Positions 7,541-23,395 of a stretch of 29,555 nucleotides of DNA are shown piece by piece. Source of the stretch: Desulfurococcaceae archaeon (lineage in GTDB: Archaea; Thermoproteota; Thermoprotei_A; Sulfolobales; Desulfurococcaceae); NCBI GenBank assembly GCA_038824035.1, contig JAWBBW010000018.1, positions 1 to 29,555 of the forward strand, read 5' to 3'. The notes beneath the pieces were generated by a model. That model ran no database searches, had not been told where the DNA came from, and worked only from the letters and a program-made list of their open reading frames with translations. Position 1 is the first letter of the stretch. Each line of letters begins with the position of its first letter. The translations under genes were made by a program, and so were the position numbers.

Positions 7541-8140
7541 ATGAGCGTGTTGCCTGGCACAGCTATTGGAATAAGAACCAAGGATAGTGTTGTATTGGCC
7601 ACGGAGAAAAGGCTTACATATGATGGATTTGTATTGAGTAGAAATGTGAGAAAAGTGTACCCAATTACCAATTTCGCTGGAGTGGCCTTTGCTGGATTAA
7701 TGGGCGATGTCAATTTTCTAGCCAGGTTATTAAAATTCGAAGCTAAATATTACGAGCTACAACACGGCAGAGAGATCAAGACACGTAGTCTCGCCAAATT
7801 ACTCTCAGTGATATTATACAACTACAAATTATTCCCAATGTTCACAGAGGTCATTGTAGGGGGGTATGATGAAGCACCTGTATTGTATATACTAGATCCT
7901 ATTGGGAGCATTATAGAGGAAAAATACGCCGCTGTAGGTTCCGGCGCACAGTTAGCACTTGGATATATAGAGCCTAGGTATAGAGAAGATTTGAGCCTAG
8001 AGGATGTGGAAAAACTCTGCATAGAAGCCATCAAGACTGTTATAGAGAGAGATGTGCTGTCCGGTGATGGCGTGGATATGATTGTATTGACCAAGACTGG
8101 TTTCAAAACCAAAGAGATCCTATTTAAACAAACTCAGTGA
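7541..8140 (+). CDS. psmB: 20S proteasome beta subunit, second paralogue lacking Thr1 (likely non-catalytic)
   Basis: LPGTAIGI aligns to TTTVGI with Gly at the Thr1 position. ATEKRLT, AGLMGD, GSGAQLA and RDVLSGDG are present. ATG 7541 follows GGTGGT. Confidence 0.92.
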   Translation: MSVLPGTAIGIRTKDSVVLATEKRLTYDGFVLSRNVRKVYPITNFAGVAFAGLMGDVNFLARLLKFEAKYYELQHGREIKTRSLAKLLSVILYNYKLFPMFTEVIVGGYDEAPVLYILDPIGSIIEEKYAAVGSGAQLALGYIEPRYREDLSLEDVEKLCIEAIKTVIERDVLSGDGVDMIVLTKTGFKTKEILFKQTQ

Positions 8141-8256
8141 ACTCGATCCTTGAATTTTACATCTAATTCACCTACATAATAATAAAAACAAAATAAATAC
8201 CAAAGCAATAATTTTATTCCTTGATATTTCAGCGATGCAATAAAATTTAAGAATAC

Positions 8257-8331
8257 GGGCCCGTCGCCTAGCCAGGATAGGGCGCCGGCCTGCGGAGCCG
8301 GAGGACCCGGGTTCAAATCCCGGCGGGCCCG
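8257..8331 (+). tRNA. tRNA-Arg(GCG), intronless, CCA not encoded
   Basis: GGGCCCG/CGGGCCC acceptor stem, D arm, anticodon arm CCGGC-CTGCGGA-GCCGG, T arm CCGGG-TTCAAAT-CCCGG and discriminator G. Confidence 0.97.
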
Positions 8332-9354
8332 TGATCTTTGTATTTGATCGCAGATTGCCTTGCATTCCGGCAGTAGAACTAAAAATACCTAAGATGTACA
8401 AGATAAAGATATATGACATGCATGTATAAGTGATTGGCTTCAGCAATAAAATTACCTGTTTCGAGTTTACTGAAACAATATCTTTTGAAAGGGGTTGTAT
8501 CGTTTAGAAAAGATGTCATATCGGAATTTTGATCATGTGCACACTAGGTATTATAACATGCCTCACATTGGTAAGATTAGATACATAAGACGATAGATCA
8601 TAATTCTATGCAGATTCAAGTGATCCTAAGTATAATTTTGAGATCATTGATCTAGTGTGGGTGGGTCCTTTGACTTGTGTGTAGTATAGGTGAACTCATT
8701 AGTTGATCTATATATGGATTTGGAAATGGTGTTTACATAGCCATCTGTGTAGTCGTTAAGACAGTGGTTTAGAGATCTAGCAAAGTCTCTTTCATTAAAA
8801 GCTCACAGTGTTTTGTTATCAAATTCCTTAGAGACATCTCGTGATTTTATCAATTTATTTCACAAAAATACTTGACAAACATTTTATAGTATCATCTTGA
8901 TCTAAACAAGTCGTTTACATGTGTATCACGTCTTCGCAATCAGTTTCCCATGAGCCAGGAACTACTGGTTCCCTCATATTCTACATATAATTCTTTTCTG
9001 AAAACAGGAAAACCTAGCTCTTTACTCGAACGTTCGATTTAAATTCTTCGAGTACCTTTAATGAATTAATTGAAGGCAAGAATTTAATTATAAGAACCCT
9101 GGCCAGCACTTATTATAAAATAACCATGATTTTTATCGATGTAATAGTCATGACTACGATATAGTGATGATACAAAGATCAATATTTCTATGTTTTTACT
9201 TTCTGCTATATTTAACACTAAGAACTCTCGGCTTTTACTAATATATCTTATCTCCCTGAATGCCGCGTCTCTTCAAATATCGGGCACTATAATTATCATG
9301 GCAATGTTCACTAAACTACGTAAAACCTCTCATTTTAATTAAATACTGCTTTAG

Positions 9355-9807
9355 TTATCCTAGTGTTATCGTTACTGGTGTCCGCTCAGTTATGTTATCG
9401 GAGACCGGGCAACGATCTTGGACATTTTTGATCAATTTCTCTAGCAAATCACGTGATATTTCGGACTTTATATTTATCTTAACTTTAATTTCTTTAAATC
9501 CTGCCCTTTCACCTTTACCTGTGTACAACTTTTCAGGGTTGAAGATACCTTCGACGCCTATTTCAAGATTCTCGATGCTAATACCCATCTCTTCAGCCAT
9601 TATATTTATAACTATATTAAAACATCCAGCTAATGAAGCTAGCAGGTATTCTAAAGGACTAGGCGCTTCTCCCCCTACTTTGTCAATAAATAACTTGAAA
9701 TTGCCTGATTCCACGCAGAAAAATGTTGGTTGCTTACCTTGAACTCGATAACCTTTTACTTTAAATACTACATCTTTGTATTGAACTTTACTCATTGTCC
9801 TCGCCAT
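9355..9807 (-). CDS. OsmC/Ohr-family protein
   Basis: GGEAPSPLEYLLASLAGC and RCPVSDNI two-Cys motifs. Confidence 0.88.
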   Translation of the reverse strand: MARTMSKVQYKDVVFKVKGYRVQGKQPTFFCVESGNFKLFIDKVGGEAPSPLEYLLASLAGCFNIVINIMAEEMGISIENLEIGVEGIFNPEKLYTGKGERAGFKEIKVKINIKSEISRDLLEKLIKNVQDRCPVSDNITERTPVTITLG

Positions 9808-9917
9808 ATAAAAGTATTTAACTATTTATTTTTAATTTATTTATCAATACAATAAACTAATATGAAAATCGTCGCCCTTTATATCACAATATAAAAATAA
9901 TAGTAGGTGTCAATTAA

Positions 9918-11051
9918 ATGACTGATAGGGCTAGATTCTTTGAAAAATTATTAAGATATATGCATAAGAGGTCCTTTACGTTTTTAGGAATAAGCCCTGT
10001 TTCAGAATATGTAATCATTTCAGGTATAAAAGCCGTAGCTGAACTTAGTGCACCGCTTATATTCGTTGTTTCATTGAATCAAGTCGACATAGATGGGGGT
10101 TATACAGGTTTTACACCAAACACATTTGTTAAATACGTTCAAGAATTAGCCATTAGAGAACATTTAGATGAACAGATAATTCTCTTTCAACTTGATCACT
10201 GTGGACCATGGTTAAAAGACGAACATATATTGAGGAATTATAGTTATAACGAAGCCCTTGAAGCAACTTTAAAATCCTTAGAGAAGTTCATAAAGGCTGG
10301 TTTCACATTGATCCACATAGATACGACAATAGATTTAGAAAAAACAAATTACATCGCCGATGTAGAATTAGCTGCGAAGAGAACAGTTGAAATTATCAGT
10401 TATGCTGAAAATATAGCCAGAGACCTTGGAGTTAAAATATATTATGAGGTAGGAAGCGATCGCTGGGGATTCAAACCTCCTGATGTCTTCGCGAGATTAA
10501 TTTCAAATATTATTTCAGGATTAAAAGGAGAAAACATCGATCACGAAAAGGTTATTTTCGTGGTCACAGATGTTGGGACAAGAGTCAGACCAGGCAATAG
10601 AGTTGATGAAAAAACTATTTCCTTATTTTCAAACATAGCATTACATCATGGATATTTATTAAAAATACATTCAGGAGACTACTTGGAAAATCCCAGTATT
10701 CTACCCCTTTATAGAGTTGGTGGTATAAACATTGGCCCCATGTTCGCAGACATACAGTTCAAATTAGTCAAAGAAGCAACACTTATGATAAATCGCAATG
10801 ATCTATTGGACAGGCTCTATGCAATAATACTTAAGGGTGATAAATTGAAAAAGCATACTAAAAAGGATAAGATCGAAGAACATGAACTTGGATTGGCATC
10901 CAGATATATATGGTCGAGTCCAGAAGCACGTGAAGTCATAAAAATCGTTGAACAACATGGCATATCATTAGCTAGAAAAATAATTGAAGAAATCAAAAAT
11001 ACCATTGAGTGGTACATGCGAGAGTTAAATTTAACGACCATTGAATTATAA
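9918..11051 (+). CDS. GatZ/KbaZ-family protein; putative D-tagatose-6-phosphate 4-epimerase
   Basis: SLNQVDIDGGYTG, LDHCGPW, AGFTLIHID, YEVG, HSGDY, NIGP and RYIW..P motifs of the GatZ/KbaZ TIM-barrel family. No gatY/kbaY partner is nearby. AGGTG RBS. Confidence 0.8.
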   Translation: MTDRARFFEKLLRYMHKRSFTFLGISPVSEYVIISGIKAVAELSAPLIFVVSLNQVDIDGGYTGFTPNTFVKYVQELAIREHLDEQIILFQLDHCGPWLKDEHILRNYSYNEALEATLKSLEKFIKAGFTLIHIDTTIDLEKTNYIADVELAAKRTVEIISYAENIARDLGVKIYYEVGSDRWGFKPPDVFARLISNIISGLKGENIDHEKVIFVVTDVGTRVRPGNRVDEKTISLFSNIALHHGYLLKIHSGDYLENPSILPLYRVGGINIGPMFADIQFKLVKEATLMINRNDLLDRLYAIILKGDKLKKHTKKDKIEEHELGLASRYIWSSPEAREVIKIVEQHGISLARKIIEEIKNTIEWYMRELNLTTIEL

Positions 11052-11359
11052 CTTATTATATTCAAACCCTAAAATTCTATTAATGTGAATAATTGATTTT
11101 TCACCATTTATTTAATGTATAAAAGTATATTTCTAAGATCATAGTACTATTGAATCATAGAAATATATAATTATAAAGAGAAGATGATAAGAAAATATAA
11201 AATATATTCTAATTATATTCGAAATTAGAGCTTAATATAGTGATATATACTATGAGTCATAATTTTAAAGCTTAAATTTACCAAAGAATTTATCGAAAAC
11301 AAGAGTATACTTATATACTTAGATATATTTAAATATTGATAATATTAATATATTTATAA

Positions 11360-12190
11360 TTGGCTGAAAACATGTCTGTAGAGGCCTTATTAAAGGAGTT
11401 GGAAAATGTGTCCTTTGTAAAGGCGTTTGATCTAAAGGGTAAAACTGCAGTTATAACCGGAGGTGCTGGTGGAATATGTAGTGCAATAGCATATGGTCTA
11501 GCAGAGTTTGGAGCTGATATAGCGTTACTTGATATAAACCTTGACAATTTAGCTAGGGTTAAAGAGTTCTTGAAAAATAAATTTCCTGAAAGAAGAATTG
11601 AAATATATCAAGTTGATGTTACGAACTATGAACAAGCATCCGTGGTTATAGATGATATTGTGAATAAATTCGGTAAAATAGACATATTAGTAAATTGCCA
11701 CGGTATAGGACAATGGGTTCCGGCAGAAGATATGAAACTGAGTGACTGGAAACGAATGATAGATATAAACTTAACTGGAGTTTTCATAATGTGTCAATTA
11801 GTTGGAAAACATATGATTAAACAACGTTATGGTAAGATAATTAACATAGCATCCATGTCTGGTCACATAGTAAATATTCCACAGAAACAATCACATTACA
11901 ATACTGCTAAAGCAGGGGTTATACATTTGACAAAGAGCCTTGCAATAGAGTGGGCCCCTTACAACATTTATGTCAATAGTGTTAGCCCAGGTTATACTGT
12001 AACACCACTTGTCGAAAACTTACTCAGAGATAAGCCTGATGTGGCAGAGACATGGAGATCATTAGTGCCCTTAAAAAGATTTGCAAGACCAATCGACATT
12101 GTAGGAGTAGTTATATTCTTAGCATCAGATGCTTCCAATTACATAACTGGAACAGATATATTAGTAGATGGAGGATATACGGCATGGTGA
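11360..12190 (+). CDS. short-chain dehydrogenase/reductase, mannitol/sorbose/galactitol dehydrogenase-like
   Basis: TGGAGGI, Asp at the end of beta2 (LLDIN, NAD-type), IASMSGHIVNIPQKQSHYNTAK (S...YxxxK), KSLAIEWA and DGGYTAW. Start TTG 11360 or ATG 11372. Confidence 0.88.
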   Translation: MAENMSVEALLKELENVSFVKAFDLKGKTAVITGGAGGICSAIAYGLAEFGADIALLDINLDNLARVKEFLKNKFPERRIEIYQVDVTNYEQASVVIDDIVNKFGKIDILVNCHGIGQWVPAEDMKLSDWKRMIDINLTGVFIMCQLVGKHMIKQRYGKIINIASMSGHIVNIPQKQSHYNTAKAGVIHLTKSLAIEWAPYNIYVNSVSPGYTVTPLVENLLRDKPDVAETWRSLVPLKRFARPIDIVGVVIFLASDASNYITGTDILVDGGYTAW

Positions 12191-12196
12191 GGGCTT

Positions 12197-13168
12197 TTGT
12201 ACAATATTAGATACTTCGATGTAATATCCCTTGGCGAAATCCTCGTTGAAATCATGAGACATAAAAAGGACATAATGCATAATGTACCAGAAATATATTT
12301 GGGACCATATCCCAGTGGGGCTCCTGCTATTACTATTGATTGTTGTGCCAGACTAGGTTTAAAATGTGGTTTTATAGGAGTTGTAGGTGCGGATGATTTC
12401 GGCTTAATGCTCATTGAAAGACTAAGATCCGATGGCGTAGATGTTTCTAGAATTAGGATAGATGAAAAAAGTGTAACAGGAATAGCCTTTGTCGCATATA
12501 AATCCGATGGGAGTAGAAGATTTGTATTTAACTTGAAACAATCAGCATCAGCGAATCTCTCGCCCGAAGATGTTGATCCAGAATACATTAGTAAAGCAAA
12601 AGTTTTACATATCTCGGGCTCTACAATGTATATCGGCAAGGAACCCAGAGAGGCGTGTTTAAAGGCAATAGAAATAGCAAGGAGCAGTGGCTTAATCATT
12701 TCATTAGATCCAAATATAAGAATTGAGTTATCATCGATAGAACATATCAGAGAAACATTTAACACTATAATAAAAAATATTGATATAATTCTCGTAGGAG
12801 AAGACGAGCTCACAGCATTGACAGGTGAAAAAGAAACAAAAGAAGCCGTAAACAAGATCATTGGGAAAGGGCCTAAAATAGTTGCTGTAAAAATGGGTAA
12901 AAAAGGATCAGTAGTGTTCTTGGAAAATGGTGAAACTTATAAGGCCAAGGCATTTGAGGTAGAAGAGGTAGATCCGACTGGTGCTGGAGATGTGTTTAAT
13001 GCGGCATTTATATATGGCTATTTAAAAAAGTGGAACCCGGAGAAAATATTATTATTTGCAAACGCAGCAGGAGCGATAAAAGTGACTAAACAGGGCCCCA
13101 TGGAGGGTCCTCTCAGTATAAATGAAGTCGTGGAGTTTCTTAGGAAACATGGAATAAATTCCATTTAA
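12197..13168 (+). CDS. PfkB-family sugar kinase, tagatose kinase-like
   Basis: GEILVEIM, GPYPSGAPAITID (resembles the GPFPSGAPAIFID signature recalled for bacterial tagatose kinases), DPNIR and DPTGAGD. Starts 6 nt after the SDR stop. Confidence 0.85.
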   Translation: MYNIRYFDVISLGEILVEIMRHKKDIMHNVPEIYLGPYPSGAPAITIDCCARLGLKCGFIGVVGADDFGLMLIERLRSDGVDVSRIRIDEKSVTGIAFVAYKSDGSRRFVFNLKQSASANLSPEDVDPEYISKAKVLHISGSTMYIGKEPREACLKAIEIARSSGLIISLDPNIRIELSSIEHIRETFNTIIKNIDIILVGEDELTALTGEKETKEAVNKIIGKGPKIVAVKMGKKGSVVFLENGETYKAKAFEVEEVDPTGAGDVFNAAFIYGYLKKWNPEKILLFANAAGAIKVTKQGPMEGPLSINEVVEFLRKHGINSI

Positions 13169-13545
13169 ATATCCAGTGCTCAATAATTGTTAACCTAGCT
13201 GTCTTGTTATTCTAAGCTAAATCATATACATTCTTCCGGTTTCGATGATGTGTAATACTACTATTACCTATTTATTTAAACCCCAGCTTCATATCATTTA
13301 TTTACAAAGATGCTTGCCCGATATGTTTCTTCTCTTTCGATTTTCAACTGAAAATACCATATTGTCAATCCACCAATAACTGCACTACACCACGGCATTC
13401 TCAGATCAAGTAATTTCATGCGAACGATCTAGGCATCAAGGATACTTACTTATTAAGCAGACTTATCATAATTTAGAATTCCCTATATTTTATACAAAAT
13501 GTATAAATAATAAAATAAAAACTGATCTATAGAATCGATACAAGA

Positions 13546-14733
13546 TTAATATGTAGCGCGTGGATATAACTGACTAATTTTTTTCCCAACTTCATTGGCC
13601 AGCTTCATTAAGTCAACTATTTGATCTGAACCGATATCATAAGGTAGCCTCTGATATTCTGATGTAGCTTTTACTTTTTCTGCAACTTTATATAGGTCTT
13701 CATCTGTTATCTCAGATATCCCTAATTCTTCAAATGTCATGGGCAAGCCAACGGAATGCGCCCATTTAATATATTCCATTGCTTGCTCCAATGTACCCTC
13801 AATTAATATTTCTACTAATGTTCCGAATGCTACCATTTCCCCGTGATATTGAATAGGTTTCATTTTCTTCTCCAAAACGCTAAGAGAGTTACCTATGGCA
13901 TGTGCAAACGCTGTGCCACCATTTTCAAATGCTAGACCACTTAACAAGGTGTTAGCATATACAACTAATTCTAAACTGGGTGTCACAGATTTTAATTTAA
14001 CAGCATGCATTGCAGCTATGCCGTGTTTTTGTAATATTTCCCACAATAATTTAGCAATGTAATGAGGTAATTCAAATGATCTAAGTGGTTCTATTCCTTT
14101 TTTATTATCATAATCCATAAATACATAGCCAGGCTTGTTTGCCTGGAAAACTGCTCTTGTCTCCCAATAATGTGATGCTGCATCCCCCATTCCAGCCGCT
14201 AGGAATCGGGCCGGCGCCTTTGATATTATTTCAGTATCCACTATAACCATATCAGGATTTCTGGGAAAATTTATCGCCTCAACAAATTCCCCTGGATAAG
14301 GTTCGGTGTATATTACTGAAATAGCTGATGTAGGTGCATCTGTAGATGCTATTGTAGGCGCCATTATTGCCGCGAGTTCGTTTGGTATGGCCACAGCTTT
14401 AGCCGTGTCCAGCGCCTTTCCGCCCCCCACACCTATTATCATGTCCACATCATTTTCCAATGCTATCTTTGTGACTCTATTTATTTCCTCCCAACTACAC
14501 TCTCTGTTAAATATCACATATATATAAGTTATATCATGCTTTTTAAGACTTTCCTCGATAATATCTCCCGCAATACGCTTAACATCAAGATCTGATAATA
14601 TCAAAGCCTTTTTACCAAATCTCTTGATTAATTTTCCAATATAGCTTAATACGCCCCTACCCTGAATATATGTTCCAGGAGCTCTAAAACCACGAATATA
14701 GAATGTAGATGTGGTCATTACTGGCTCGAACAT
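13546..14733 (-). CDS. gldA: glycerol dehydrogenase-like (family III metal-dependent polyol dehydrogenase)
   Basis: APGTYIQGRG, GGGKALDTAKA, PTIASTDAPTSAISVIY, NPDMVIVDT, GMGDA, ANTLLSGLAFENGG, AHA and HGEMVAFG. The Asp/His/His metal ligands are retained. Confidence 0.85.
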   Translation of the reverse strand: MFEPVMTTSTFYIRGFRAPGTYIQGRGVLSYIGKLIKRFGKKALILSDLDVKRIAGDIIEESLKKHDITYIYVIFNRECSWEEINRVTKIALENDVDMIIGVGGGKALDTAKAVAIPNELAAIMAPTIASTDAPTSAISVIYTEPYPGEFVEAINFPRNPDMVIVDTEIISKAPARFLAAGMGDAASHYWETRAVFQANKPGYVFMDYDNKKGIEPLRSFELPHYIAKLLWEILQKHGIAAMHAVKLKSVTPSLELVVYANTLLSGLAFENGGTAFAHAIGNSLSVLEKKMKPIQYHGEMVAFGTLVEILIEGTLEQAMEYIKWAHSVGLPMTFEELGISEITDEDLYKVAEKVKATSEYQRLPYDIGSDQIVDLMKLANEVGKKISQLYPRATY

Positions 14734-14783
14734 TTTTGCCCACCCTCTTTATAAATAAATTTTTAAAAAATATATAAATTGTG

Positions 14784-15860
14784 TTAAATCAATCTTTCTC
14801 CATCTTTGCTAAAAATCCTTACCTTTTCACGTGGCAGAGTTATAAATACGATGTCTCCTTCTTTTATATCTAGCTGTTCATATGCCTTTATTGAAATCAT
14901 TTGACCTGTAGAAAGCTCTACGTGGTATAGAATGGCCGTGCCTATCTTTTCTATAATAGCTGTTCTACCGCTTATTTCACCTCTTTCTTTAGAGATCTTG
15001 ATATGCTCTGGCCTAATACCTATATCGAACTCTCTGCCCGCCTTACTTAACACTTCTATTTCGTTTGCCATTAATCTATATTTAAATGCTCCGCAATCAA
15101 GGACATTATTTTCGAGAACACAACTTATGTAGTTCATTCCAGGATTCCCAATGAAATATCCAACAAATTTATTCTTTGGATATTCATATAATATTGATGT
15201 ATCATCGTATTGAACTACCTTACCCTCATTCATTACTGCAACTTTTTCAGCCAAGGTCAATACTTCTGCCTGGTCATGTGAAACATACAGTGTAGTAATT
15301 TTCATTTTTTGGACTATTTCTTTTAGCTTAGATTTTAACTCTATCCTGACAAGTGGTTCCAAATTCGTTAAGGGTTCGTCGAGAAGCAAGACATTTGCAT
15401 CTCGAACTATTGCTCTGGCTACGGCAATTTTCTGTCTCAAGGAGGGATCAGCACCACGAGCACTTTTACTAAGAATATCCTTAGGTATGCCAAGTATTTC
15501 GGCAGCTTCTTTAACCCTTTTATCAATTTCTTCCTTGGGATATTTCCTTATTTTCAGTGGAAATGCTATATTATCATATATGCTCATGTCATATGCAACT
15601 GGGAACTGAAATACCATGGCCACATTTCTTCTTATGGGATCCCAGTCAGTAACGTCTTTATCATCGAAAAACACTTTGCCCTTTGTAGGGCGTAGAAGTC
15701 CTGCTATTATTTTTAAAAGTGTAGTCTTACCACATCCTGAGGGGCCGAGTATGCCGATTATTTTACCTTTAGGAAATACTATGCTAACATCTTTTAAGGC
15801 GATTGTTTCTATTTTGTCGATATATATATGGGTTACTTTTTCTACTCTAATCTCAACCAT
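14784..15860 (-). CDS. carbohydrate ABC transporter ATP-binding protein (GlpT-like, degenerate signature motif)
   Basis: Walker A GPSGCGKTT, VFQFPV Q-loop, ARGADPSLRQK in place of LSGGQ, LLLDEP, VSHDQ and C-terminal GIRPEH TOBE domain. Start likely ATG 15860 (GGGGAG RBS). Confidence 0.9.
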   Translation of the reverse strand: MVEIRVEKVTHIYIDKIETIALKDVSIVFPKGKIIGILGPSGCGKTTLLKIIAGLLRPTKGKVFFDDKDVTDWDPIRRNVAMVFQFPVAYDMSIYDNIAFPLKIRKYPKEEIDKRVKEAAEILGIPKDILSKSARGADPSLRQKIAVARAIVRDANVLLLDEPLTNLEPLVRIELKSKLKEIVQKMKITTLYVSHDQAEVLTLAEKVAVMNEGKVVQYDDTSILYEYPKNKFVGYFIGNPGMNYISCVLENNVLDCGAFKYRLMANEIEVLSKAGREFDIGIRPEHIKISKERGEISGRTAIIEKIGTAILYHVELSTGQMISIKAYEQLDIKEGDIVFITLPREKVRIFSKDGERLI

Positions 15861-15862
15861 TA

Positions 15863-17005
15863 TTACTCCCCTACCCATTCACCTAAAGTATATATTAGTT
15901 TACCAGTAATTTTATCAAATATCATTATATCAGTTGATTTAAACATTAATGATAATTTAATGGCTTTTTCGATTGGTCTAAGTTCTGGTAAAAGTATCCT
16001 CATAATACCTTTATTATTAACTGATGCATAAACAAGTGTTTCAGAACCTAATACCTCACTTGTAATTATTGTAGCTGTAAGTGAAATCATATCACGTGAG
16101 TACGTTATCACTGGTTCAGATGATATTTTAACATCTTGAGGTCTTATACCTATGACTACTTCTCTTCTTTCAGATACCTTGGGTATCTTGGAAGTCTCCG
16201 TTATCTTCAAATTTATATCAAGTGATGGTAAGTCGATAATACAAACAGCATCCTTACACTGCATTGTTCCTTCAAATATATTAATTGGAGGATAGAATAA
16301 GAACTTTGCTACATCAAACATTTCTGGTTTTGAGAGTATTTTTGTGGGCTCGTCATATTGAAGAAGTTTACCCCACAATAATACAGCTACACGATCACCT
16401 AAGGCAACGGCTTCCACGGGATCGGGTGTCGAATAAATCACGATCTTATCTTTACTATATCTTAGTATTTTCTTTAATTCAGCCCTCATAGTCTCTCTGA
16501 TCTTGTAATCCAAATTTGTCAATGGTTCATCAAATAAGAGGATCTTAGAGTCCTTGACTAAGGCTCTCGCAATGGCTACTCTTTGTCTTTGACCACCACT
16601 TAATTGTGCGGGGTATTTATTTAATATATCATCAATTCTAAGTAATGAAGCTATATCCTTAATTCTTTTGTCAATCTCTTCTTTTGAATATTTCTTTGAT
16701 ACTCTAAGTGGAAACGCTATATTATCATATACACTCATATGTGGGAACAATGCATAACTTTGAAAAACAAATGACACATTCCTTAAATGAGAAGGTGTAT
16801 CTGTAATATCGTTACCACCAAATATTATTTTGCCTTGATCTGGCCTCTCGAAACCAGCAATTATCTTTAGCAATGTTGTCTTTCCAGAACCAGCTGGTCC
16901 GAAAACCGTAACGATTTTTCCCGTTTCGAAGTTTAAATTAATGTTATTGAGCGCAATTATTGAGCCATATTTTTTCAAGAGATTTTGTACCACTAAGCCC
17001 TCCAT
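15863..17005 (-). CDS. carbohydrate ABC transporter ATP-binding protein (GlpS-like, lacks switch His)
   Basis: GPAGSGKTT, LSGGQRQR, LLFDEPLTNLDYKIRE, YSTPDP in place of YVTHDQ, and GIRPQD. Confidence 0.9.
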   Translation of the reverse strand: MEGLVVQNLLKKYGSIIALNNINLNFETGKIVTVFGPAGSGKTTLLKIIAGFERPDQGKIIFGGNDITDTPSHLRNVSFVFQSYALFPHMSVYDNIAFPLRVSKKYSKEEIDKRIKDIASLLRIDDILNKYPAQLSGGQRQRVAIARALVKDSKILLFDEPLTNLDYKIRETMRAELKKILRYSKDKIVIYSTPDPVEAVALGDRVAVLLWGKLLQYDEPTKILSKPEMFDVAKFLFYPPINIFEGTMQCKDAVCIIDLPSLDINLKITETSKIPKVSERREVVIGIRPQDVKISSEPVITYSRDMISLTATIITSEVLGSETLVYASVNNKGIMRILLPELRPIEKAIKLSLMFKSTDIMIFDKITGKLIYTLGEWVGE

Positions 17006-17015
17006 ACATGATCCC

Positions 17016-17831
17016 TCAAGCCATACCCATAGTTAAGCCAGTTACCAGATATTTACGAGTTATCAATGCTATCACTATTCCGGGGATGGCTGAGATAACG
17101 CCCAGTGCAGCCATTTGAGACCAGTAAACTCCTGCAACAGTCACCATGCCTTGTAAAGCAGTGGGAATAGTTCTAGCTTCAGTGCTTGTTAGAAATGATG
17201 CAAATAAGTATTCATTAAATGCAAATAGAAATGTCAATATATATGAGATTGCTATAACACCTTTAATTATTGGCACATGTATCTTGAACAATGTTGAAAT
17301 CGGACCATATCCTTCAAGCTTAGCTGCATAATCAAGGTCTCTTGGAATTGCCTCTTCAGCTGAAAGGAGCAACCATATAGCTATCGGTACATTAAACACT
17401 AAATATACTATAATCAATGAAAGAAGCTGATCTTTCATGCCCAGCGTAACGCAGAACATGTAATAATATGCTACTGCAAACACTACTGGCGGGGCCATAC
17501 GCATTGAGACAAAGGAAAAGAATAATGTATCCCTACCCTTGAACTTAAATCTCGATATAGTATACGCTGCTAATAATGAAATTACTGTTGCTAATCCGGC
17601 ATTAACAGCTGCTACTATCAACGAATTCGCCAGGTATTTAAGCCCAAAGAACTTGTATAGGGCATCTAGATAATACTGTATTGATGGATTGGGCGGATAC
17701 CAATAAGGTGGATTAGAATATATTTCTATATAGCTCTTTAGAGAAGTTGCTATTAACCAGTATAATGGAAATATATAGGTAACCGCTATTATCAGGGTTA
17801 TTATTATATATATAAATGTTAATTTCTTCAT
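17016..17831 (-). CDS. carbohydrate ABC transporter permease (MalG-type)
   Basis: FPLYWLIATSLK, multiple TM segments, EAA-like loop IPRDLDYAAKLEG and C-terminal LVTGLTMG. Confidence 0.92.
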   Translation of the reverse strand: MKKLTFIYIIITLIIAVTYIFPLYWLIATSLKSYIEIYSNPPYWYPPNPSIQYYLDALYKFFGLKYLANSLIVAAVNAGLATVISLLAAYTISRFKFKGRDTLFFSFVSMRMAPPVVFAVAYYYMFCVTLGMKDQLLSLIIVYLVFNVPIAIWLLLSAEEAIPRDLDYAAKLEGYGPISTLFKIHVPIIKGVIAISYILTFLFAFNEYLFASFLTSTEARTIPTALQGMVTVAGVYWSQMAALGVISAIPGIVIALITRKYLVTGLTMGMA

Positions 17832-17925
17832 AAGTATCCCTTCAACTACATTTTACATTTATTTCTCTCCTTAATTGTATTATAATTCAATACGGTATTT
17901 ATAGTTAAAAACTTTACCATTAATA

Positions 17926-18783
17926 TCACCTCCTTATGATCCTGGTGATCACGTTGCTAACTGCTATAATAATTATTAGAATTATCAATGATAGTGCAGC
18001 AGCTTGTGAGAGATTCCATGATATTAAACCTAACCTGTATAGAAATATGCTGACATAATGCGTTGCCACACCTGGACCTCCTTGTGTGAGCATCCAGACC
18101 TGGTCAAACACCTTAAAGGAATCCATGAATCTGAGTATTATGGCAAATACAAGGTTTGACCTTATCATCTTTGTATATAAGTACATTAACCTTCTAAAGA
18201 AGCCAGCACCATCGACCATAAAGGACTCTACATATTCAATTGGTATTGAAAGCAATCCACCTAGAACTATGAATGCCACAAGAGGTGTCCATTGCCATAT
18301 ATCCATAATAATCGTTAAGACAAACGCTTGATCTCCGTTTACAACAAAGTTGAAATTTACACCAAATGTTGATCGTAGCCAGTAAGTGAATGCACCAAAG
18401 TCTGGGTGAAGCAAGAACCTCCATATTAAACCTACAGTAATAGGTGGTATTCCAAGAGGTATTACCAATATTGGCGTGAGCACTTTTTTTATTATAGTAC
18501 TTTCGTACATTAAAGCACCTATTATTAATCCAACAATGATCTCAATCACTATAGCTATAACAGTGTAAGTTATTGTCAATCTTAAGGTATGCATAGTCAT
18601 AGGATCAGTGAGAATCCTAACGTAGTTTTCAGCGCCAACAAAACGTATATTTGTTTCACCTGGACGCCACATATTAACTATGGATAGCCATATCGTATAG
18701 CCAAGTGGTATTAAAGCCAGCGACACATACACCAATAGACATGGAAGAAGAAATAGCACAGCTTTTCTAGATTCTCTTGACAT
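17926..18783 (-). CDS. carbohydrate ABC transporter permease (MalF-type)
   Basis: FVGAENY, DIWQWTP, IPIEYVESFMVDGA EAA loop and LTQGGPG. Start likely ATG 18783 after GAGGTGA; the ORF extends to 18843. Confidence 0.92.
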   Translation of the reverse strand: MSRESRKAVLFLLPCLLVYVSLALIPLGYTIWLSIVNMWRPGETNIRFVGAENYVRILTDPMTMHTLRLTITYTVIAIVIEIIVGLIIGALMYESTIIKKVLTPILVIPLGIPPITVGLIWRFLLHPDFGAFTYWLRSTFGVNFNFVVNGDQAFVLTIIMDIWQWTPLVAFIVLGGLLSIPIEYVESFMVDGAGFFRRLMYLYTKMIRSNLVFAIILRFMDSFKVFDQVWMLTQGGPGVATHYVSIFLYRLGLISWNLSQAAALSLIILIIIIAVSNVITRIIRR

Positions 18784-18963
18784 AAGACCCATTTCACCTC
18801 GTCTTAGTACTAAAAGACCCTCCAGGGATTGTATTCTTGACACAAGCTTAAAAACCTTAAATCAATAACAAGAGGTTTATTTAATAATTCAAATAAATAC
18901 AATTATTATGGGGAGTTTGTAAAAAAATAGGTTGTATTTTCTATGTAGAATTCTATGAGCTGG

Positions 18964-20535
18964 CTATATATATGGTGGTATTATCTTATACACGTCGCGC
19001 CACTTAGCGAGAACCTCCAATACTATTGCCGCTGCCCTATCTAGTGCTTCATCAGGCGATATTTCTCCCATAACAGCTCTATGTAATGTTGTAAACAATT
19101 CTGTTGTTGTAGCAATATCATAAGTCGGTCCTGGCGGGTTACCTCTGAAAACGTTTTCGCGCACAGCTTTCATCATTAATGCAAAATATCCATGGCCAAA
19201 TTTCTCATCTAATTTAGGTCCCCACTCTGTTAACACAGACCACCTAACCACGGTATTTACGTTTTCAGCTATTCTGGCAACATTTTGCTTACTTGTAACC
19301 CATTGTATAAACAACCATGAAGCAATTTTTCTTTCTCGTGGCAGATATGGGTTTATGCCCATACCACCTCCATCAAAATAACCTATATAACCACCAGTAT
19401 AGCATTCCGGATCTATTGGTGGATATGCCACGCCATATTTACCTATCATAGCTGGGTTCTCTTTGAATATCGTTCCAAAGAATTCTGCATACATCAAGCC
19501 TTGTACAGCATCTCCACGAGTAAATGTTGCACCTACTTCATCCCAGGTATATGAGGCCACACCTGGTGGAGCATATTTCAATAATTCTACATATAACCTA
19601 AATGCTTTCTTACCACATGTGTTATTAAAGTAAACTTGATCCAGGCCTGTTGATATACCCCAATATTGTATTCCGAACGTGGGCCAAACACTTTCAACCA
19701 TTTCGAACCATAAACATGGATGCGAAGCAGCTTGGGCAACCCATCCATATACTCCAGGCTCTCTTGTACCAGCTCCGAAGAATTCTGCTACTTCCTTAAC
19801 AAAATCCCATGTCAATACCTCAGGTAAAGAAATTCCATATTTAGCGAACAGGTCTTTTCTATATACATATATCTTCAAGAATGCTTCAAATGGTATAGCT
19901 AACAATCTACCAGCATAGTAATAATCTTTTAACACAAATATATCATCAGGGTCGTATGCTGGCCATGTTAACTCTGGATCACTTAAATATGGTGTTAAGT
20001 CCTCTAGCCAGCCTAGAACACCGAATTGTCCTACTATATCTTGTTCAACGTAGAATAAGTCATAGTCTGTAGTCCTAGCTGTTAAAGTAGCTACTGATTT
20101 TCTGTACATTTCATCCCATGAGACAGCCTCTACAATTACCGTTATTCCCGTTATTCTTTCAAACTCCTTTGCCAGAACATCTCGTATAAATAGACTTGTA
20201 GGTGTACTCTCCGTGACCATTCTTATAGTCAAGCCTCTCAATCCATGTTTAGCAGACATCTCTGCAAGCCATTGCTCTAATGGTAATGCTTCTGGCACCG
20301 GTACTCCAGGCGCTGTTACTGTAACAGGTATCGTTACTGTCTCTGTTACAGTTATTACTGCTCCAGGTACTCCCGGCTGGGTTACTGTTACTACGCTCAC
20401 GGTGGGCACTGTTACAGGGACGGTGACGGTCTGCATCTCTCTAGGTAACGTTGCCACAAGGGCTATTGTTACAATAGATAATACAATTAGTACTACTAAA
20501 GCTATTGCTAGGAACCTGGGTGCAACCGCGCTCAA
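18964..20535 (-). CDS. ABC transporter solute-binding protein (family 1, GlpV-like), N-terminally membrane anchored
   Basis: Hydrophobic N-terminal helix, Thr/Val/Pro linker, FERITGI, YRKDLF, KYAPPG, IGYFDGGG and SWLFIQWVTSK. TTG start with GAGGGG RBS. Confidence 0.9.
   Translation of the reverse strand: MSAVAPRFLAIALVVLIVLSIVTIALVATLPREMQTVTVPVTVPTVSVVTVTQPGVPGAVITVTETVTIPVTVTAPGVPVPEALPLEQWLAEMSAKHGLRGLTIRMVTESTPTSLFIRDVLAKEFERITGITVIVEAVSWDEMYRKSVATLTARTTDYDLFYVEQDIVGQFGVLGWLEDLTPYLSDPELTWPAYDPDDIFVLKDYYYAGRLLAIPFEAFLKIYVYRKDLFAKYGISLPEVLTWDFVKEVAEFFGAGTREPGVYGWVAQAASHPCLWFEMVESVWPTFGIQYWGISTGLDQVYFNNTCGKKAFRLYVELLKYAPPGVASYTWDEVGATFTRGDAVQGLMYAEFFGTIFKENPAMIGKYGVAYPPIDPECYTGGYIGYFDGGGMGINPYLPRERKIASWLFIQWVTSKQNVARIAENVNTVVRWSVLTEWGPKLDEKFGHGYFALMMKAVRENVFRGNPPGPTYDIATTTELFTTLHRAVMGEISPDEALDRAAAIVLEVLAKWRDVYKIIPPYI
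20293..20433 (-). repeat. low-complexity Thr/Val/Pro-rich linker coding repeat in the SBP
   Basis: Repeated GTTAC(T/A)G units on the + strand encode TVTVPVTVPTVSVVTVTQPGVPGAVITVTETVTIPVTVTAPGVP. Confidence 0.7.
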
Positions 20536-20687
20536 TACAACCCCCTCTGTTTATATCTGTTATATGTAAGGATGAGTTTAAAAATATTTCCTACTAGAGA
20601 AATCATAGTAAAAGTAAAATAAACATATATAAATGTTATAAATACAGAATATATGAATATAGAAATGATATGGTTCTGGTGATGAAT

Positions 20688-21707
20688 ATGCGGGCCCTGG
20701 TTATTTATAGACCATTTGAAAGTAATATAGATGTGGTAAATGACCCAGAACCTCGAGCAAACGAGATCGTAATAAAAACCAAGGCATGTGGTATTTGTGG
20801 TACGGATATCCATATATTCAGGGGCGAGGAACCTAGAACATTGTTTCCCATAATACCTGGCCACGAATTAGCCGGTGTAATCATAGACATGGGAAAAGAT
20901 ATCAAAGACTTCTCTGTAGGTGATGTAGTAGCCGTTGATCCTAACATTGCTTGCGGCAGATGTTATTATTGTAAAATTGGATCAAGGCATTTCTGTGAAA
21001 ACTGGGAAGGCATTGGAGTCACTAGGCCAGGGGGATTTGCAGAAAAAGTCGCTGTACCTGTTGATAACTTGTATAAAGTTCCGCGCAATATTCCACTTGA
21101 AAGAGCCGCACTTGTAGAGCCTTTATCTTGCATACTTCATGGATTAGATGCTATAATGCCTTTAAAAGGTGGTGAAAAAATAGCAATTTTCGGTGCAGGA
21201 CCGATAGGGCTTATGTTCTTAGCCATTCTTAGAAGGTTTACAATCGCTGATATAGCAGTATTCGAAGTTCAACCTCAAAGAGCTAAGAAGGCTATAGAAT
21301 TTAAAGCAGATATTGTAGAAAATCCCACAGAGATCGATCTGTACAAGTTTTCACAAGAGTTCACCCATGGAAAAGGTTTCAATGTAGTGATAGATGCAAC
21401 TGGAAATATAGAAGCTATTTCAAGAATATTGAAATTAGATATTGTTGCTCCACAGGCAAAGATATTGCTTTTTGGTGTAGCTCCCACTGGTAGAAAAGTA
21501 GAATTAGAGCCCTATATGGTTTTCAGAAAAGAGGTATCCATTATGGGAACCATTATAAATCCGTATACCACGCAAAGAGCTATTATGCTCCTTGACGAAC
21601 TACCAGAGTTGGATACTATGATAGATAGAATAAGTCTCGAAGAAGCTCTTAATATTCTCCGAGGTACGAGTGGAAAGAATTACATCAAACCCATGATAAT
21701 ATTTTAG
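20688..21707 (+). CDS. zinc-dependent (MDR) polyol dehydrogenase, D-altritol/arabitol dehydrogenase-like
   Basis: CGICGTD, GHE, DPNIACGRCYYC-x7-C structural Zn site, EPLSC, GAGPIG, acidic residue after beta2 and INPYT. Start ATG 20688 after GGTG; the ORF extends to 20670. Confidence 0.88.
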   Translation: MRALVIYRPFESNIDVVNDPEPRANEIVIKTKACGICGTDIHIFRGEEPRTLFPIIPGHELAGVIIDMGKDIKDFSVGDVVAVDPNIACGRCYYCKIGSRHFCENWEGIGVTRPGGFAEKVAVPVDNLYKVPRNIPLERAALVEPLSCILHGLDAIMPLKGGEKIAIFGAGPIGLMFLAILRRFTIADIAVFEVQPQRAKKAIEFKADIVENPTEIDLYKFSQEFTHGKGFNVVIDATGNIEAISRILKLDIVAPQAKILLFGVAPTGRKVELEPYMVFRKEVSIMGTIINPYTTQRAIMLLDELPELDTMIDRISLEEALNILRGTSGKNYIKPMIIF

Positions 21708-21727
21708 GATAACACTTGGTGAGCTCG

Positions 21728-22696
21728 ATGTATGTAACTGAAGCTACATGTATGGGTGAAATTTTAGTAGACATTATCCCCTTAGAGCCGGGCGGCTACA
21801 AAGATGGGGCAATATTCGAAGTACATTTCGGTGGTGCACCAGCAAATGTTGCAGTTGGTATTGCTAGGCTTAACCATAGATCAGCATTTATTGGATCTAT
21901 TGGGGATGATCCATTCGGTGACATGTTAAAGGATTTCCTGGTGAAGAATGGCGTTGATACTAGATGGCTTGTCAGGAAAAAAGCCAGGACTAGTTTGGCA
22001 TTTGTCATGCTACACGAGAACGGGGAGAGAGACTTTTTCTTTTACAGAGAGCCGTGGGTTAAAACAGCAGATACTATGCTTAAAATTGATGACATAGATC
22101 TTGACGCCGTCTTAAAGACTAAAGTGATCCATATATCCGGAGTAGCTACAGCTTACCCATCACTCAATGAAACTATTTATGAAGTGATGAAAGAGGCATA
22201 TAGATCAGGGGTCTTCGTCTCTATAGATCCAAATTACAGAGCGGATATTTGGGGTTCAGGTGAACTAGCTTTGAAGACCATGAACAAATATTTCAGGGTT
22301 TCACACATGATAACGATGGGTAAAGATGAATTATTGAATATGTTCGGCATTGAAGATCACAAGTATTTGGCAAGAATGATTTTTGATCAATATCCGAACA
22401 TCGAGATTGTAGCATTAAGACTTGGTGCATTAGGAGCATACGTGGCTAAAAGAAATGATGAAGAAATCTATGTACCAGCATATAAGATAACTCCAGTTGA
22501 TACTACTGGTGCCGGGGATGTATGGACAGCTACATTTATAGTTATGCACATATTAGAAGGCATGAAGCTGGAAAAATCAATCAAATACGCTAACGCCGCT
22601 GCTGCAATAAAATGTACCCGCAGAGGTGCTGTAACAGCATTTCCACGAAGAGATGAGATAGAAAACTTTATTAAACAATACGAATCATGTTGTTAA
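21728..22696 (+). CDS. PfkB-family sugar kinase, fructokinase-like
   Basis: GEILVD, GGAPANVAVGIARL, GDDPFG, TSLAFV, GERDFFFYR, DPNYR and DTTGAGD. ATG 21728 follows GGTGA. Confidence 0.88.
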   Translation: MYVTEATCMGEILVDIIPLEPGGYKDGAIFEVHFGGAPANVAVGIARLNHRSAFIGSIGDDPFGDMLKDFLVKNGVDTRWLVRKKARTSLAFVMLHENGERDFFFYREPWVKTADTMLKIDDIDLDAVLKTKVIHISGVATAYPSLNETIYEVMKEAYRSGVFVSIDPNYRADIWGSGELALKTMNKYFRVSHMITMGKDELLNMFGIEDHKYLARMIFDQYPNIEIVALRLGALGAYVAKRNDEEIYVPAYKITPVDTTGAGDVWTATFIVMHILEGMKLEKSIKYANAAAAIKCTRRGAVTAFPRRDEIENFIKQYESCC

Positions 22697-22852
22697 CTTA
22701 ATTTGACCAAGATATTAAAAATTATTTATTATGAAAATGTTTTATATAATGATGAGACCCGTTAACACAACGTCAATATTGAAGAACATGTTTTAGAACA
22801 TAATCAAAAGTTTCGGCGATGTTGCCGTCGATCGTTCTTTAGCAAATGCCAT

Positions 22853-23395
22853 TCAGTGATTGGCTGGTTTTCTTCTAACAAGTTTACCTCTGTTTGATGG
22901 AATTATTTCTTGCCGTGCATTTTCGAATTTTATGTAAAGTTCCTTTCCTTCATATATTCGATCAAGGAAAATCGCTAGTGCAGCGATCTCCGAGTGAGGC
23001 TGATGTCCTATTGCAATATTGAAATCTGCTATTTCGTAAAAGAACCTAGGAACTTTTTTCGCTCCAACTACAACTAATATATCTCTTGTATCTCTTCTTA
23101 CCTTATCGATTACATCGTCTATATGTATACCATACATGGTTAAATGCACTACTAAGCCTCCTTTCTCTTTCCAATTAACACAGTATTTCTCAGAGTTAAC
23201 GCCCATTTCTAAGTGAAGAAAACCACCCCAATATTTTTCAATTTTCTTGATTGTTTTATACACATTTTCATCTACTACATCACCTAGTATAAATCCATGA
23301 GCGCCAAAAGCCCTGGCCACTAAGGCCACGTGTGTTGTAACTCTCTTATCCCTGCCTGGCCGATGGCCATATCTTAGCACATATATCTTCCTCAT
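22853..23395 (-). CDS. trm56: tRNA (cytidine(56)-2'-O)-methyltransferase
   Basis: LRYGHRPGRDKRVTTHVALVARAFGA, VHLTMYG, VGAKKVP and QPHSEIAALAIFLDR. Confidence 0.96.
   Translation of the reverse strand: MRKIYVLRYGHRPGRDKRVTTHVALVARAFGAHGFILGDVVDENVYKTIKKIEKYWGGFLHLEMGVNSEKYCVNWKEKGGLVVHLTMYGIHIDDVIDKVRRDTRDILVVVGAKKVPRFFYEIADFNIAIGHQPHSEIAALAIFLDRIYEGKELYIKFENARQEIIPSNRGKLVRRKPANH

Follow-up and report, generated by a model that had tools for sequence, protein, structure and literature searches.

Can an archaeon use hexitols and tagatose through a pathway that involves no phosphotransferase system (PTS)? This question is raised by a gene island (positions 9918-22696) on a contig of a Desulfurococcaceae archaeon (GenBank assembly GCA_038824035.1, contig JAWBBW010000018.1), the whole of which, 29,555 nucleotides (nt), is called the window here, and which is contig C18 of a 1.33 Mb genome (G000) in 29 contigs, rated 99.67% complete. 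A sequence-only reading of this DNA had proposed that the island encodes a non-PTS polyol route with its own ATP-binding cassette (ABC) importer, in which tagatose would pass through tagatose-6-phosphate (T6P) to fructose-6-phosphate (F6P) by means of a tagatose kinase and a stand-alone epimerase. From our comparative analysis, we give a little better than an even chance to the view that the island reproduces the hexitol/tagatose logic of rhizobia in an archaeon, with polyols being oxidised to ketoses and tagatose being converted via T6P to F6P. The six elements on which the proposal was built (a GatZ/KbaZ-family gene, a short-chain dehydrogenase/reductase (SDR), a PfkB kinase, a zinc-dependent medium-chain dehydrogenase/reductase (MDR), a fructokinase-like PfkB protein, and a family-1 binding-protein ABC system) were all recovered in place from open reading frames (ORFs), Pfam and NCBIfam, and their peptide motifs were present in the translations (GPYPSGAPAITID in the PfkB kinase; DPNIAC, EPLSC, and INPYT in the MDR). 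Its account of the importer and dehydrogenases was sound for the genes it named, though it had overlooked a GldA-type iron-dependent alcohol dehydrogenase (13546-14733) and a second ATPase.

The ORF list, Pfam and NCBIfam together delimit eleven genes in three units (Table 1). The first unit, on the plus strand, holds the GatZ/KbaZ-like gene, an AT-rich gap of 308 nt, the SDR gene and the PfkB kinase gene, the latter two being separated by 6 nt. The second, on the minus strand and convergent on the first, comprises the genes for the solute-binding protein (SBP), two permeases, and two ATPases (A1 and A2, which overlap by 16 nt), and it ends with the GldA-type gene, the last of the transporter strand and co-oriented with it. 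In the third, on the plus strand, the MDR gene is followed 8 nt past its end by a second PfkB gene (PfkB2), and the start of this unit diverges from that of the binding-protein gene, 134 nt away. In the proposed scheme, a CUT1-type ABC importer would take up one or more polyols, probably hexitols, which three NAD-dependent dehydrogenases (SDR, MDR, and GldA-type) would oxidise to ketoses; the PfkB kinase beside the SDR would phosphorylate D-tagatose to T6P, and the stand-alone GatZ-like protein would invert C4 by a metal-dependent retro-aldol/aldol reaction, yielding F6P. [quoted passage not shown] Every substrate, the direction of flux, and the link of the transporter and dehydrogenases to the kinase/epimerase pair are what we infer here from computed families, fold, catalytic residues, gene order, synteny elsewhere, and the absence of alternative aldolases.

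The closest precedents are rhizobial. Wichelecki and colleagues reportedly described, in 2015, a D-altritol/galactitol pathway of Agrobacterium tumefaciens C58 that runs from hexitol to tagatose, T6P, and F6P. As in that organism, five families (zinc-dependent MDR, SDR, ABC binding protein, PfkB kinase, and GatZ-like protein) are gathered in one cluster, with the same proposed logic and with neither a PTS nor a bisphosphate aldolase. This comparison was made through a syntenic stand-in, the plasmid locus L087 of Rhizobium sp. NXC14, which carries genes of all five families, while those of the window lie within 12.8 kb. The A. tumefaciens type of cluster lacks three things that the window has, namely a dehydrogenase of the GldA type, another PfkB kinase, and an importer with two ATPases, and the host of the window is an archaeon. 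Furthermore, the available text of PMC9720028 describes, on Sinorhizobium meliloti pSymB, an operon for the TagABC importer, the tagatose kinase TagD, and the T6P epimerase TagE (reported by Kohlmeier and colleagues in 2019), which resembles the window in combining an ABC importer, a tagatose kinase, and an epimerase yielding F6P. We took the pSymB kinase (locus L102), which follows an ABC ATPase and adjoins a GatZ-like gene, to be TagD because its position matches the operon described there (PMC9720028). That locus has two tandem ATPase-like stretches, read as a fused CUT2-type ATPase, whereas the importer of the window is of the CUT1 type.

The PfkB kinase gene lies 1.1 kb downstream of the GatZ-like gene, on the same strand. 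Among 23 families scored, NF049991 TagKinase was its best match (315.5 bits), leading the next model by 119 bits; the runners-up were the models for 2-keto-3-deoxygluconate/2-keto-3-deoxygalactonate (KDG/KDGal) kinase (196.7 bits), IolC (182 bits), and fructokinase (150.7 bits). The kinase is 39% identical to that of S. meliloti pSymB and 43% identical to that of the Rhizobium cluster, and its best match in the PDB is 3iq0, an E. coli protein annotated as 'putative ribokinase II' (226.6 bits). In a maximum-likelihood tree of 36 rows, hand-picked from the kinases encountered, a clade of 20 rows (99/99) united the window kinase with the two rhizobial kinases, two from Chloroflexota, and every TagK-like kinase of archaeal origin. 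Outside it fell PfkB2, the genome's four further PfkB paralogues, and the distinct PfkB kinases encoded beside GatZ-like genes in Bacteroidota, Balneolota, and Chloroflexota. Within the clade, the window kinase grouped with three GatZ-adjacent kinases labelled as Ignisphaera or of the same order. This placement of the kinase backs the sequence-only reading. Characterised KDG kinases and fructokinases are represented in this comparison by hidden Markov model scores alone, the KDG kinase model NF040938 giving 196.7 bits against a cut-off of 400. Separately, a kinase 98% identical to that of the window (P0078) was seen on a 6.7 kb contig of a metagenome-assembled genome (MAG) labelled Candidatus Methanomethylicia, for which either faulty binning or a very recent interclass transfer could account.

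The GatZ-like protein was assigned by PF08013, with 81.7 bits against a cut-off of 26.7, through a match confined to residues 27-181 (model positions 21-171 of 420), and pairwise methods likewise detected only its N-terminal half. With a profile of 18 homologues, residues 25-373 aligned to E. coli GatZ, PDB 2fiq (E 2.4e-29), and an alignment was also obtained to 3txv, which is the GatZ-like protein of S. meliloti pSymB (899 bits over 407 aa). The AlphaFold2 model (pLDDT 93.5, pTM 0.92) had its best Foldseek matches in the same two structures, with TMq 0.74 for 3txv (E 9.9e-20) and TMq 0.77-0.81 for 2fiq, while class II FBP aldolases gave TMq 0.45-0.56. The modelled protein accordingly has the TIM-barrel fold of the GatZ/TagE type.

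In E. coli GatZ, Asp87 is described as the base and His88, His257, and Glu171 as the metal (zinc) ligands; both GatZ and KbaZ are reported to have C4-epimerase activity, for which a retro-aldol reaction has been proposed (available text of PMC11907403). In the window protein, D93-H94 and H251, which are invariant among the 18 homologues, correspond to D87-H88 and H257 in E. coli GatZ; in 2fiq and 3txv these are the positions DH and HS.DY. Like E. coli GatZ/KbaZ, the window protein belongs to this Pfam family and fold and has the Asp-His pair as well as the second of the zinc-binding histidines; the E. coli gene is encoded with GatY and a PTS, and the window protein is shorter (377 versus 420 aa). 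In a FastTree phylogeny of 39 rows, the rhizobial GatZ-like proteins stood on a long separate branch, and proteins of the Caldilinea type lay in the sister clade of the Thermoproteota GatZ-like clade, with which they have the patterns NQ[VI]DxDGGY and DH[GC]GPWL[KR] in common. Since the GatZ of Caldilinea aerophila has been used to convert F6P to T6P (according to the available text of PMC10533046), epimerase activity is reported on both sides of the archaeal clade, and such an activity is likely within it as well.

The claim that the GatZ-like gene has no aldolase partner proved true of the whole genome: PF01116 gave no match in this assembly, while the same family was recovered in 11 of 14 control genomes, and PF08013 itself was found only once. 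The tagatose cluster of E. coli Nissle 1917 resembles the island in having an ABC importer, a PfkB tagatose kinase, and a second PfkB kinase nearby; there, T6P is described as proceeding to tagatose-1,6-bisphosphate and a class II aldolase (available text of PMC9720028), whereas the genome of the window holds no such aldolase. For the fate of F6P, contig C1 encodes an archaeal class I FBP aldolase (NF040816, 476.7 bits, where the cut-off is 430) and a PfkB kinase in two genes with a 4-nt overlap (together C1:146607-148357, equal to L082:5607-7357), and a CUT2-type sugar importer comes next on the other strand. This kinase gave generic ribokinase-like matches only and is a candidate PfkB-type 6-phosphofructokinase; the PFK-A family was not found in the genome, the ADP-PFK family not having been searched for. 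The pair is likely to be the route from F6P to triose phosphates. Apart from this, a second class I aldolase, of the DhnA type, was noted on contig C10 (NF005556, of the ADH-synthase subfamily, 222.5 bits against a cut-off of 241), with flanking genes for a protein like beta-hydroxyacid dehydrogenases and for an IolB/KduI-like cupin isomerase; this locus (C10:34827-37358, or L086:1827-4358) may be another sugar or sugar-acid cluster.

The kinase and the GatZ-like gene are found together in other archaea. With a GatZ-like profile we retrieved 80 loci, of which 23 were archaeal, several of the archaeal contigs that lacked a TagK-like gene being just 4-6 kb long. A TagK-like gene (39-68% identical) lay within 1.5 kb of the GatZ-like gene in eight of these 23 (L004, L006, L008, L018, L020, L023, L026, and L044), which come from Thermoproteota, Nitrososphaerota/Aigarchaeota, and Bathyarchaeia; in L026 the order is MDR, TagK-like, GatZ-like, SDR. 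Of 401 genomes sampled evenly across the phylum, with G000 among them, nine had a GatZ-like gene and 45 had a TagK-like gene (E <= 1e-70), which is hence five times more common; seven of the nine GatZ-like-positive genomes also had a TagK-like gene, and in six the two lay within 1.3 kb of each other.

Regarding the dehydrogenases, the SDR scored 240.5 bits on the GolD/DthD family (cut-off 286), and the structures nearest to it in the PDB are dehydrogenases for polyols, mannitol, sorbitol, gluconate (gluconate-5), and galactitol. Its translation shows a glycine-rich motif for NAD and, where strand 2 ends, an Asp, which we take, from the usual rules for SDRs, to mean that it prefers NAD. It is 34% identical to the SDR of the Rhizobium cluster and 37% identical to another SDR of the same locus. 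The MDR is 32% identical to its counterpart in that cluster; its best PDB match is 4ej6, a putative zinc dehydrogenase (202.5 bits), followed by threonine dehydrogenases. The GldA-type protein matched the glycerol dehydrogenase model NF006941 over residues 14-388 with 373 bits, above the cut-off of 336. As for PfkB2, its PDB matches are PH1459 (161 bits) and then fructokinases.

The importer is of the CUT1 type, with a binding protein, two permeases, and two unlike ATPases. The translated SBP has an N-terminal membrane anchor and a Thr/Val/Pro-rich linker, is 26% identical over 267 aa to the binding protein of L087, and has as PDB neighbours 5iai, a 'sugar ABC transporter' (92 bits), the trehalose/maltose binding protein 1eu8, and 4rya, annotated '(Sorbitol)' (58.7 bits). 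In alignments, ATPase A1 has the canonical LSGGQ signature and a Pro in place of the H-loop His (TPDP), while A2 has an intact H-loop (SHDQ) and a degenerate signature (ADPSL instead of LSGGQ). These complementary defects are kept in the three closest metagenome loci (L103, L104, and L105), whereas both motifs have the canonical form in two single ATPases taken from other loci; from the motifs of A1 and A2, the pair is predicted to form one competent and one degenerate ATP site, which is of small separate interest for the mechanics of ABC transporters.

Table 1. Genes of the island, with positions in the window, strand, and principal family matches.
Feature	Position	Strand	Evidence
GatZ/KbaZ-like protein, proposed tagatose-6-phosphate 4-epimerase	9918-11051	+	377 aa; PF08013 81.7 bits
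SDR, proposed polyol 2-dehydrogenase	11360-12190	+	adh_short_C2 218 bits
PfkB kinase, tagatose-kinase clade	12197-13168	+	NF049991 TagKinase 315.5 bits
GldA-type Fe-dependent polyol/glycerol dehydrogenase	13546-14733	-	NF006941 373 bits; Fe-ADH 102 bits
ABC ATPase A2, MalK/GlcV/UgpC-like	14784-15878	-	ABC_tran + TOBE_2; UgpC 288.6, GlcV 278.7 bits
ABC ATPase A1, GlcV-like	15863-17005	-	ABC_tran 130.6, GlcV 296.8 bits
ABC permease 2	17016-17831	-	BPD_transp_1 55.8 bits
ABC permease 1	17926-18843	-	BPD_transp_1 47.1; UgpA 106.7, GlcT 84.5 bits, last two below cut-off
Family-1 solute-binding protein	18964-20535	-	SBP_bac_1 81.4 bits
Zn-MDR, polyol-dehydrogenase/Tdh-like	20670-21707	+	ADH_N 105.4, ADH_zinc_N 57.4 bits
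PfkB2, fructokinase/IolC-like	21716-22696	+	IolC-N 194.7, fructokinase 183.5, TagKinase 157 bits, all below cut-off

Several observations weigh against the hexitol/tagatose reading. With respect to the enzymes, the kinase, at 315.5 bits, stays below the TagKinase cut-off of 420; the GatZ-like protein reaches 67.5 bits on the agaZ_gatZ equivalog TIGR02810, whose cut-off is 568.8, and is about 28% identical to proteins of the characterised epimerases' type (28% over 160 aa to the Rhizobium GatZ-like protein). The equivalent of Glu171 is Asp181 (GSD) in the archaeal clade and Glu (GTE) in the E. coli, rhizobial, and Chloroflexota-type proteins, the Asp still being a carboxylate, one carbon shorter than Glu. 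Moreover, Lys279, Glu44, and Cys20, called diagnostic of GatZ/KbaZ versus aldolases in the available text of PMC11907403, correspond in the window protein, when mapped via alignments, to Asn271, Val50, and Ser26. The Bacteroidales, Actinomycetia, and Anaerolineales members of the alignment of homologues also have Asn and Ala at the Lys279 and Glu44 positions, and the Chloroflexota-type proteins carry the same Asn as the archaeal clade, whereas the rhizobial GatZ-like proteins have Lys and Glu as in E. coli, both of them missing from the archaeal clade. The sequences of the SDR and the MDR, for their part, do not assign a substrate to either enzyme. Furthermore, no operator-like motif common to the promoter regions 9808-9917, 11052-11359, and 20536-20669 rose above shuffled controls, every promoter pair falling within the range of 50 shuffles in a search for shared 12-mers and 14-mers with mismatches; an Rfam scan of positions 8000-23000 gave nothing beyond a tRNA.

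With respect to gene context, 38 of the 45 TagK-like-positive genomes of the phylum sample had no GatZ-like match for the window query. In kinase-only genomes (L088-L093, L096, and L099), the neighbours of the kinase were major facilitator superfamily transporters, Amidohydro_2 proteins, MDRs, an NAD epimerase/dehydratase, and an alpha-L-fucosidase; because these neighbourhoods do not point to tagatose, the substrate of the kinase clade may not be uniform. In addition, the GatZ-like protein of the window is nested in a clade of 11 rows whose members adjoin amino-sugar genes, and its nearest relative there (L002, 57-59% identity) is on a 9.6 kb contig with no TagK-like gene. When one to three genes were scanned at each locus, all nine Thermoproteota GatZ-like loci so treated (L002, L003, L004, L005, L007, L009, L011, L094, and L097) had an adjacent BadF/NagK-like kinase, a double-SIS protein of the GlmS-C/GlmD/AgaS-like type, or both, while L023, the sole Nitrososphaerota locus scanned, had an FGGY kinase and a fucose-isomerase-like protein instead. 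The island of the window has neither NagK-like nor double-SIS genes; L004 and L094 combine NagK-like, SIS, GatZ-like, and TagK-like genes. On the archaeal MAG contig of L002, a PTS permease of the EIIC-GAT family (L002:6721-8037, minus strand, 267 bits) was observed directly after the SIS and GatZ-like genes, PTS components being rare in archaea.

The importer block also occurs elsewhere. A metagenome scan with the binding protein returned seven loci. In L103 the SBP, both permeases, A1, A2, GldA, and SDR are conserved at 71-87% identity (GldA 81%, SDR 82%); L105 has the same set at 57-79% (GldA 79%, SDR 74%), together with a divergent MDR (56%) and a second iron-dependent alcohol dehydrogenase, and in L104 the block is conserved from the SBP through A2. 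In L103 and L105 the importer and dehydrogenase block comes with no TagK-like or GatZ-like gene in the available DNA, which ends 57 nt past GldA in L105 and past A2 in L104, so that absence beyond these edges does not follow. From this conservation, the importer and the three dehydrogenases appear to be a conserved unit of their own, and this block and the kinase/GatZ-like pair may be functionally separate. The co-conservation that the sequence-only reading expected was seen for the kinase and the GatZ-like gene, adjacent in eight of the 23 archaeal loci, and not for the importer block of L103 and L105, with neither gene in the available DNA. A more distant locus of the same scan, L106 (SBP 46% and TagK-like gene 50% identical, with two MDRs), has a gene of the phage-integrase family (L106:14912-15901, plus strand) about 1.3 kb downstream, which fits mobility of such sugar modules.

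An explanation with an appreciable, though minor, share of the probability is therefore that two unrelated modules stand side by side: an importer with dehydrogenases for some other polyol (glycerol, a tetritol, a pentitol, or a diol), and a kinase with a GatZ-like protein that salvage tagatose or T6P, supplied for example by heat-isomerised galactose or by galactosamine. The recurrence of the block from SBP to A2, GldA, and SDR in L103, L104, and L105 (67-87% identical), where no TagK-like or GatZ-like gene was seen and where L105 brings its own divergent MDR, argues for this, as do a GldA protein above the cut-off of a glycerol dehydrogenase subfamily, an SDR whose closest NCBIfam subfamily (GolD/DthD) includes threitol dehydrogenases by name, and GatZ-like genes linked elsewhere to amino-sugar genes and not to dehydrogenases. 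However, the sequences of L104 and L105 stop at the block's edge and therefore do not establish absence there, and the 6-nt gap between the SDR and kinase genes suggests one transcript. This junction, the row of MDR, TagK-like, GatZ-like, and SDR genes in L026, and the rhizobial precedent, with L087 uniting the same families, are the reasons for which we link the importer block to the kinase and epimerase. A glycerol route through GldA is also weakened in that no Dak1-type dihydroxyacetone kinase was found in the genome, which encodes two FGGY kinases on contig C14.

It is less probable, and we regard it as a small chance, that PfkB2 makes tagatose-1,6-bisphosphate, to be cleaved either by the GatZ-like protein, if it is an aldolase that needs no partner, or by the DhnA-type class I aldolase of contig C10. 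The island does hold two PfkB kinases, and a 65% identical homologue of PfkB2 occurs in L094, near a GatZ-like gene and at a distance of 1.7 kb from the TagK-like one; PfkB2 and this homologue form a pair (100/100) in the kinase tree, outside the tagatose-kinase clade. The GatZ-like fold is also related to that of class II FBP aldolases, at the TMq values given above, the epimerase chemistry proposed in PMC11907403 is itself retro-aldol, and the Nissle cluster described in PMC9720028 combines a tagatose kinase with a bisphosphate aldolase. Nevertheless, PfkB2 scores poorly on hexose-phosphate kinase models (44.5 bits on the 1-phosphofructokinase/hexose kinase model TIGR03168 versus 183.5 on fructokinase), the genome has no PF01116 aldolase, the metal site follows the GatZ pattern of two His and a carboxylate and not the three His of class II aldolases (available text of PMC11907403), and E. 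coli GatZ was without aldolase activity in a study cited there.

An oxidative sugar-acid route, in which the MDR would oxidise an aldose and the kinase would act on a 2-keto-3-deoxy sugar acid, is highly improbable: in archaea without a GatZ-like gene (L089, L093, and L099) the TagK-like kinase does adjoin lactonase-like Amidohydro_2 proteins and MDRs with a glucose-dehydrogenase C-terminal signature, and the MDR of the window has a weak Glu_dehyd_C match (29.9 bits, cut-off 34.9), but Pfam and NCBIfam show no lactonase or dehydratase in the island, the only MR_MLE_C match in the genome is weak (34.2 bits, in a 448-aa frame), the kinase scores 196.7 bits on the KDG/KDGal kinase model versus 315.5 on TagKinase, and neither DHDPS-type (PF00701) nor KDPG/KHG-type (PF01081) aldolases gave any match in the genome. 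With both KD(P)G aldolase families missing, a KDG-kinase reading was rejected for this genome. What probability remains falls to something not considered or to an assembly artefact.

The proposal of a non-PTS route through a tagatose kinase and a stand-alone epimerase is thus supported in part, by the family scores, the kinase tree, the fold and catalytic residues, the lack of a class II aldolase, and the adjacency of the two genes; it is held back by dehydrogenases just 32-37% identical to the rhizobial ones, by an importer block that recurs with neither kinase nor epimerase, and by the amino-sugar neighbours of related GatZ-like genes.

The island was probably acquired by horizontal transfer. 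The kinase (E <= 1e-60) and the binding protein (E <= 1e-40) were each found in none of the 16 other genomes of the genus, four of which are less than 90% complete; among 15 further genomes of the family, none had the kinase and one had a GatZ-like gene. The housekeeping genes that flank the island match genomes of the same genus at 64-73% DNA identity, and we consider for this reason that the contig belongs to this lineage. In a DNA comparison with 20 relatives, nearly all the matches listed fall in the flanks (a proteasome subunit, a tRNA, an OsmC-like gene, Trm56, and an HflX-like GTPase). Among these matches, to which a further 201 are to be added, there are five short island stretches at 65-73% identity, in the GatZ-like gene (G404), an ATPase-gene stretch (G259 and G404), and the GldA and PfkB2 genes (G211). 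Upstream of the island lie a tRNA-Arg(GCG) gene (8256-8332), about 1 kb of AT-rich DNA with no ORF above 50 aa, and an OsmC-like gene (9355-9807). This tRNA-Arg region resembles an integration hot spot; the 3' part of the tRNA occurs only once in the window at up to three mismatches, with no repeat, and no integrase-like frame was seen in the island. As for habitat, words sampled from positions 9918-13168 occur, at a fraction of 0.70-0.75, in four sequencing runs that come from three studies and all bear the label hot springs metagenome; one of these may be the source sample. The description of the host as a hyperthermophilic crenarchaeon is plausible in view of its Thermoproteota relatives and these hot-spring-labelled runs.

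Part of this picture is already known: the pathway occurs in Rhizobiaceae, while E. coli and Caldilinea have epimerases of the GatZ type. What differs in the island is the extra GldA-type dehydrogenase, the second kinase, the asymmetric ATPase pair, and the divergent GatZ subfamily. A literature search, with subscription journals largely outside its coverage, found no publication on an archaeal tagatose, galactitol, or tagatose-6-phosphate route.

The amino-sugar neighbourhoods suggest a broader, more tentative reading. In the bacterial Aga pathway, a hexosamine kinase (AgaK) and a deaminase of the AgaS type yield T6P, which then continues through a T6P kinase and the AgaY/AgaZ aldolase. Because Aga-type genes yield T6P, this would be the one metabolite common to the amino-sugar and tagatose contexts, and the NagK-like and SIS genes beside archaeal GatZ-like genes would also deliver it. 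On gene content, the Thermoproteota amino-sugar loci look like an undescribed archaeal route for galactosamine or N-acetylgalactosamine that ends in the conversion of T6P to F6P. We hold it possible, at somewhat less than an even chance, that the Thermoproteota GatZ-like proteins are hyperthermophilic T6P 4-epimerases, forming the hub of an archaeal T6P shunt that has two unrelated feeders and no tagatose-bisphosphate aldolase. One feeder, for galactosamine or N-acetylgalactosamine, would employ a kinase of the NagK-like type together with a double-SIS deaminase, the other, for tagatose or hexitols, a kinase of the TagK clade, and both would drain to F6P; the organism of the window would then have joined this hub to an imported module for polyol uptake and oxidation. 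Free tagatose as a hot-spring substrate, arising from galactose that isomerises on heating, is speculation.

In applied terms, the phosphorylation-epimerisation-dephosphorylation route to the sweetener D-tagatose needs F6P/T6P 4-epimerases (available texts of PMC11907403 and PMC13717879), and the enzymes of hot-spring archaea are candidates for more heat-stable versions of these. For the organism itself, the island is plausibly an accessory set for carbohydrate utilisation in a hot-spring Thermoproteota archaeon with a small genome. If the hexitol/tagatose proposal is true, this would be the first archaeal non-PTS hexitol/tagatose pathway, and a function would follow for a small archaeal protein clade labelled in databases as 'non-catalytic aldolase subunit'.

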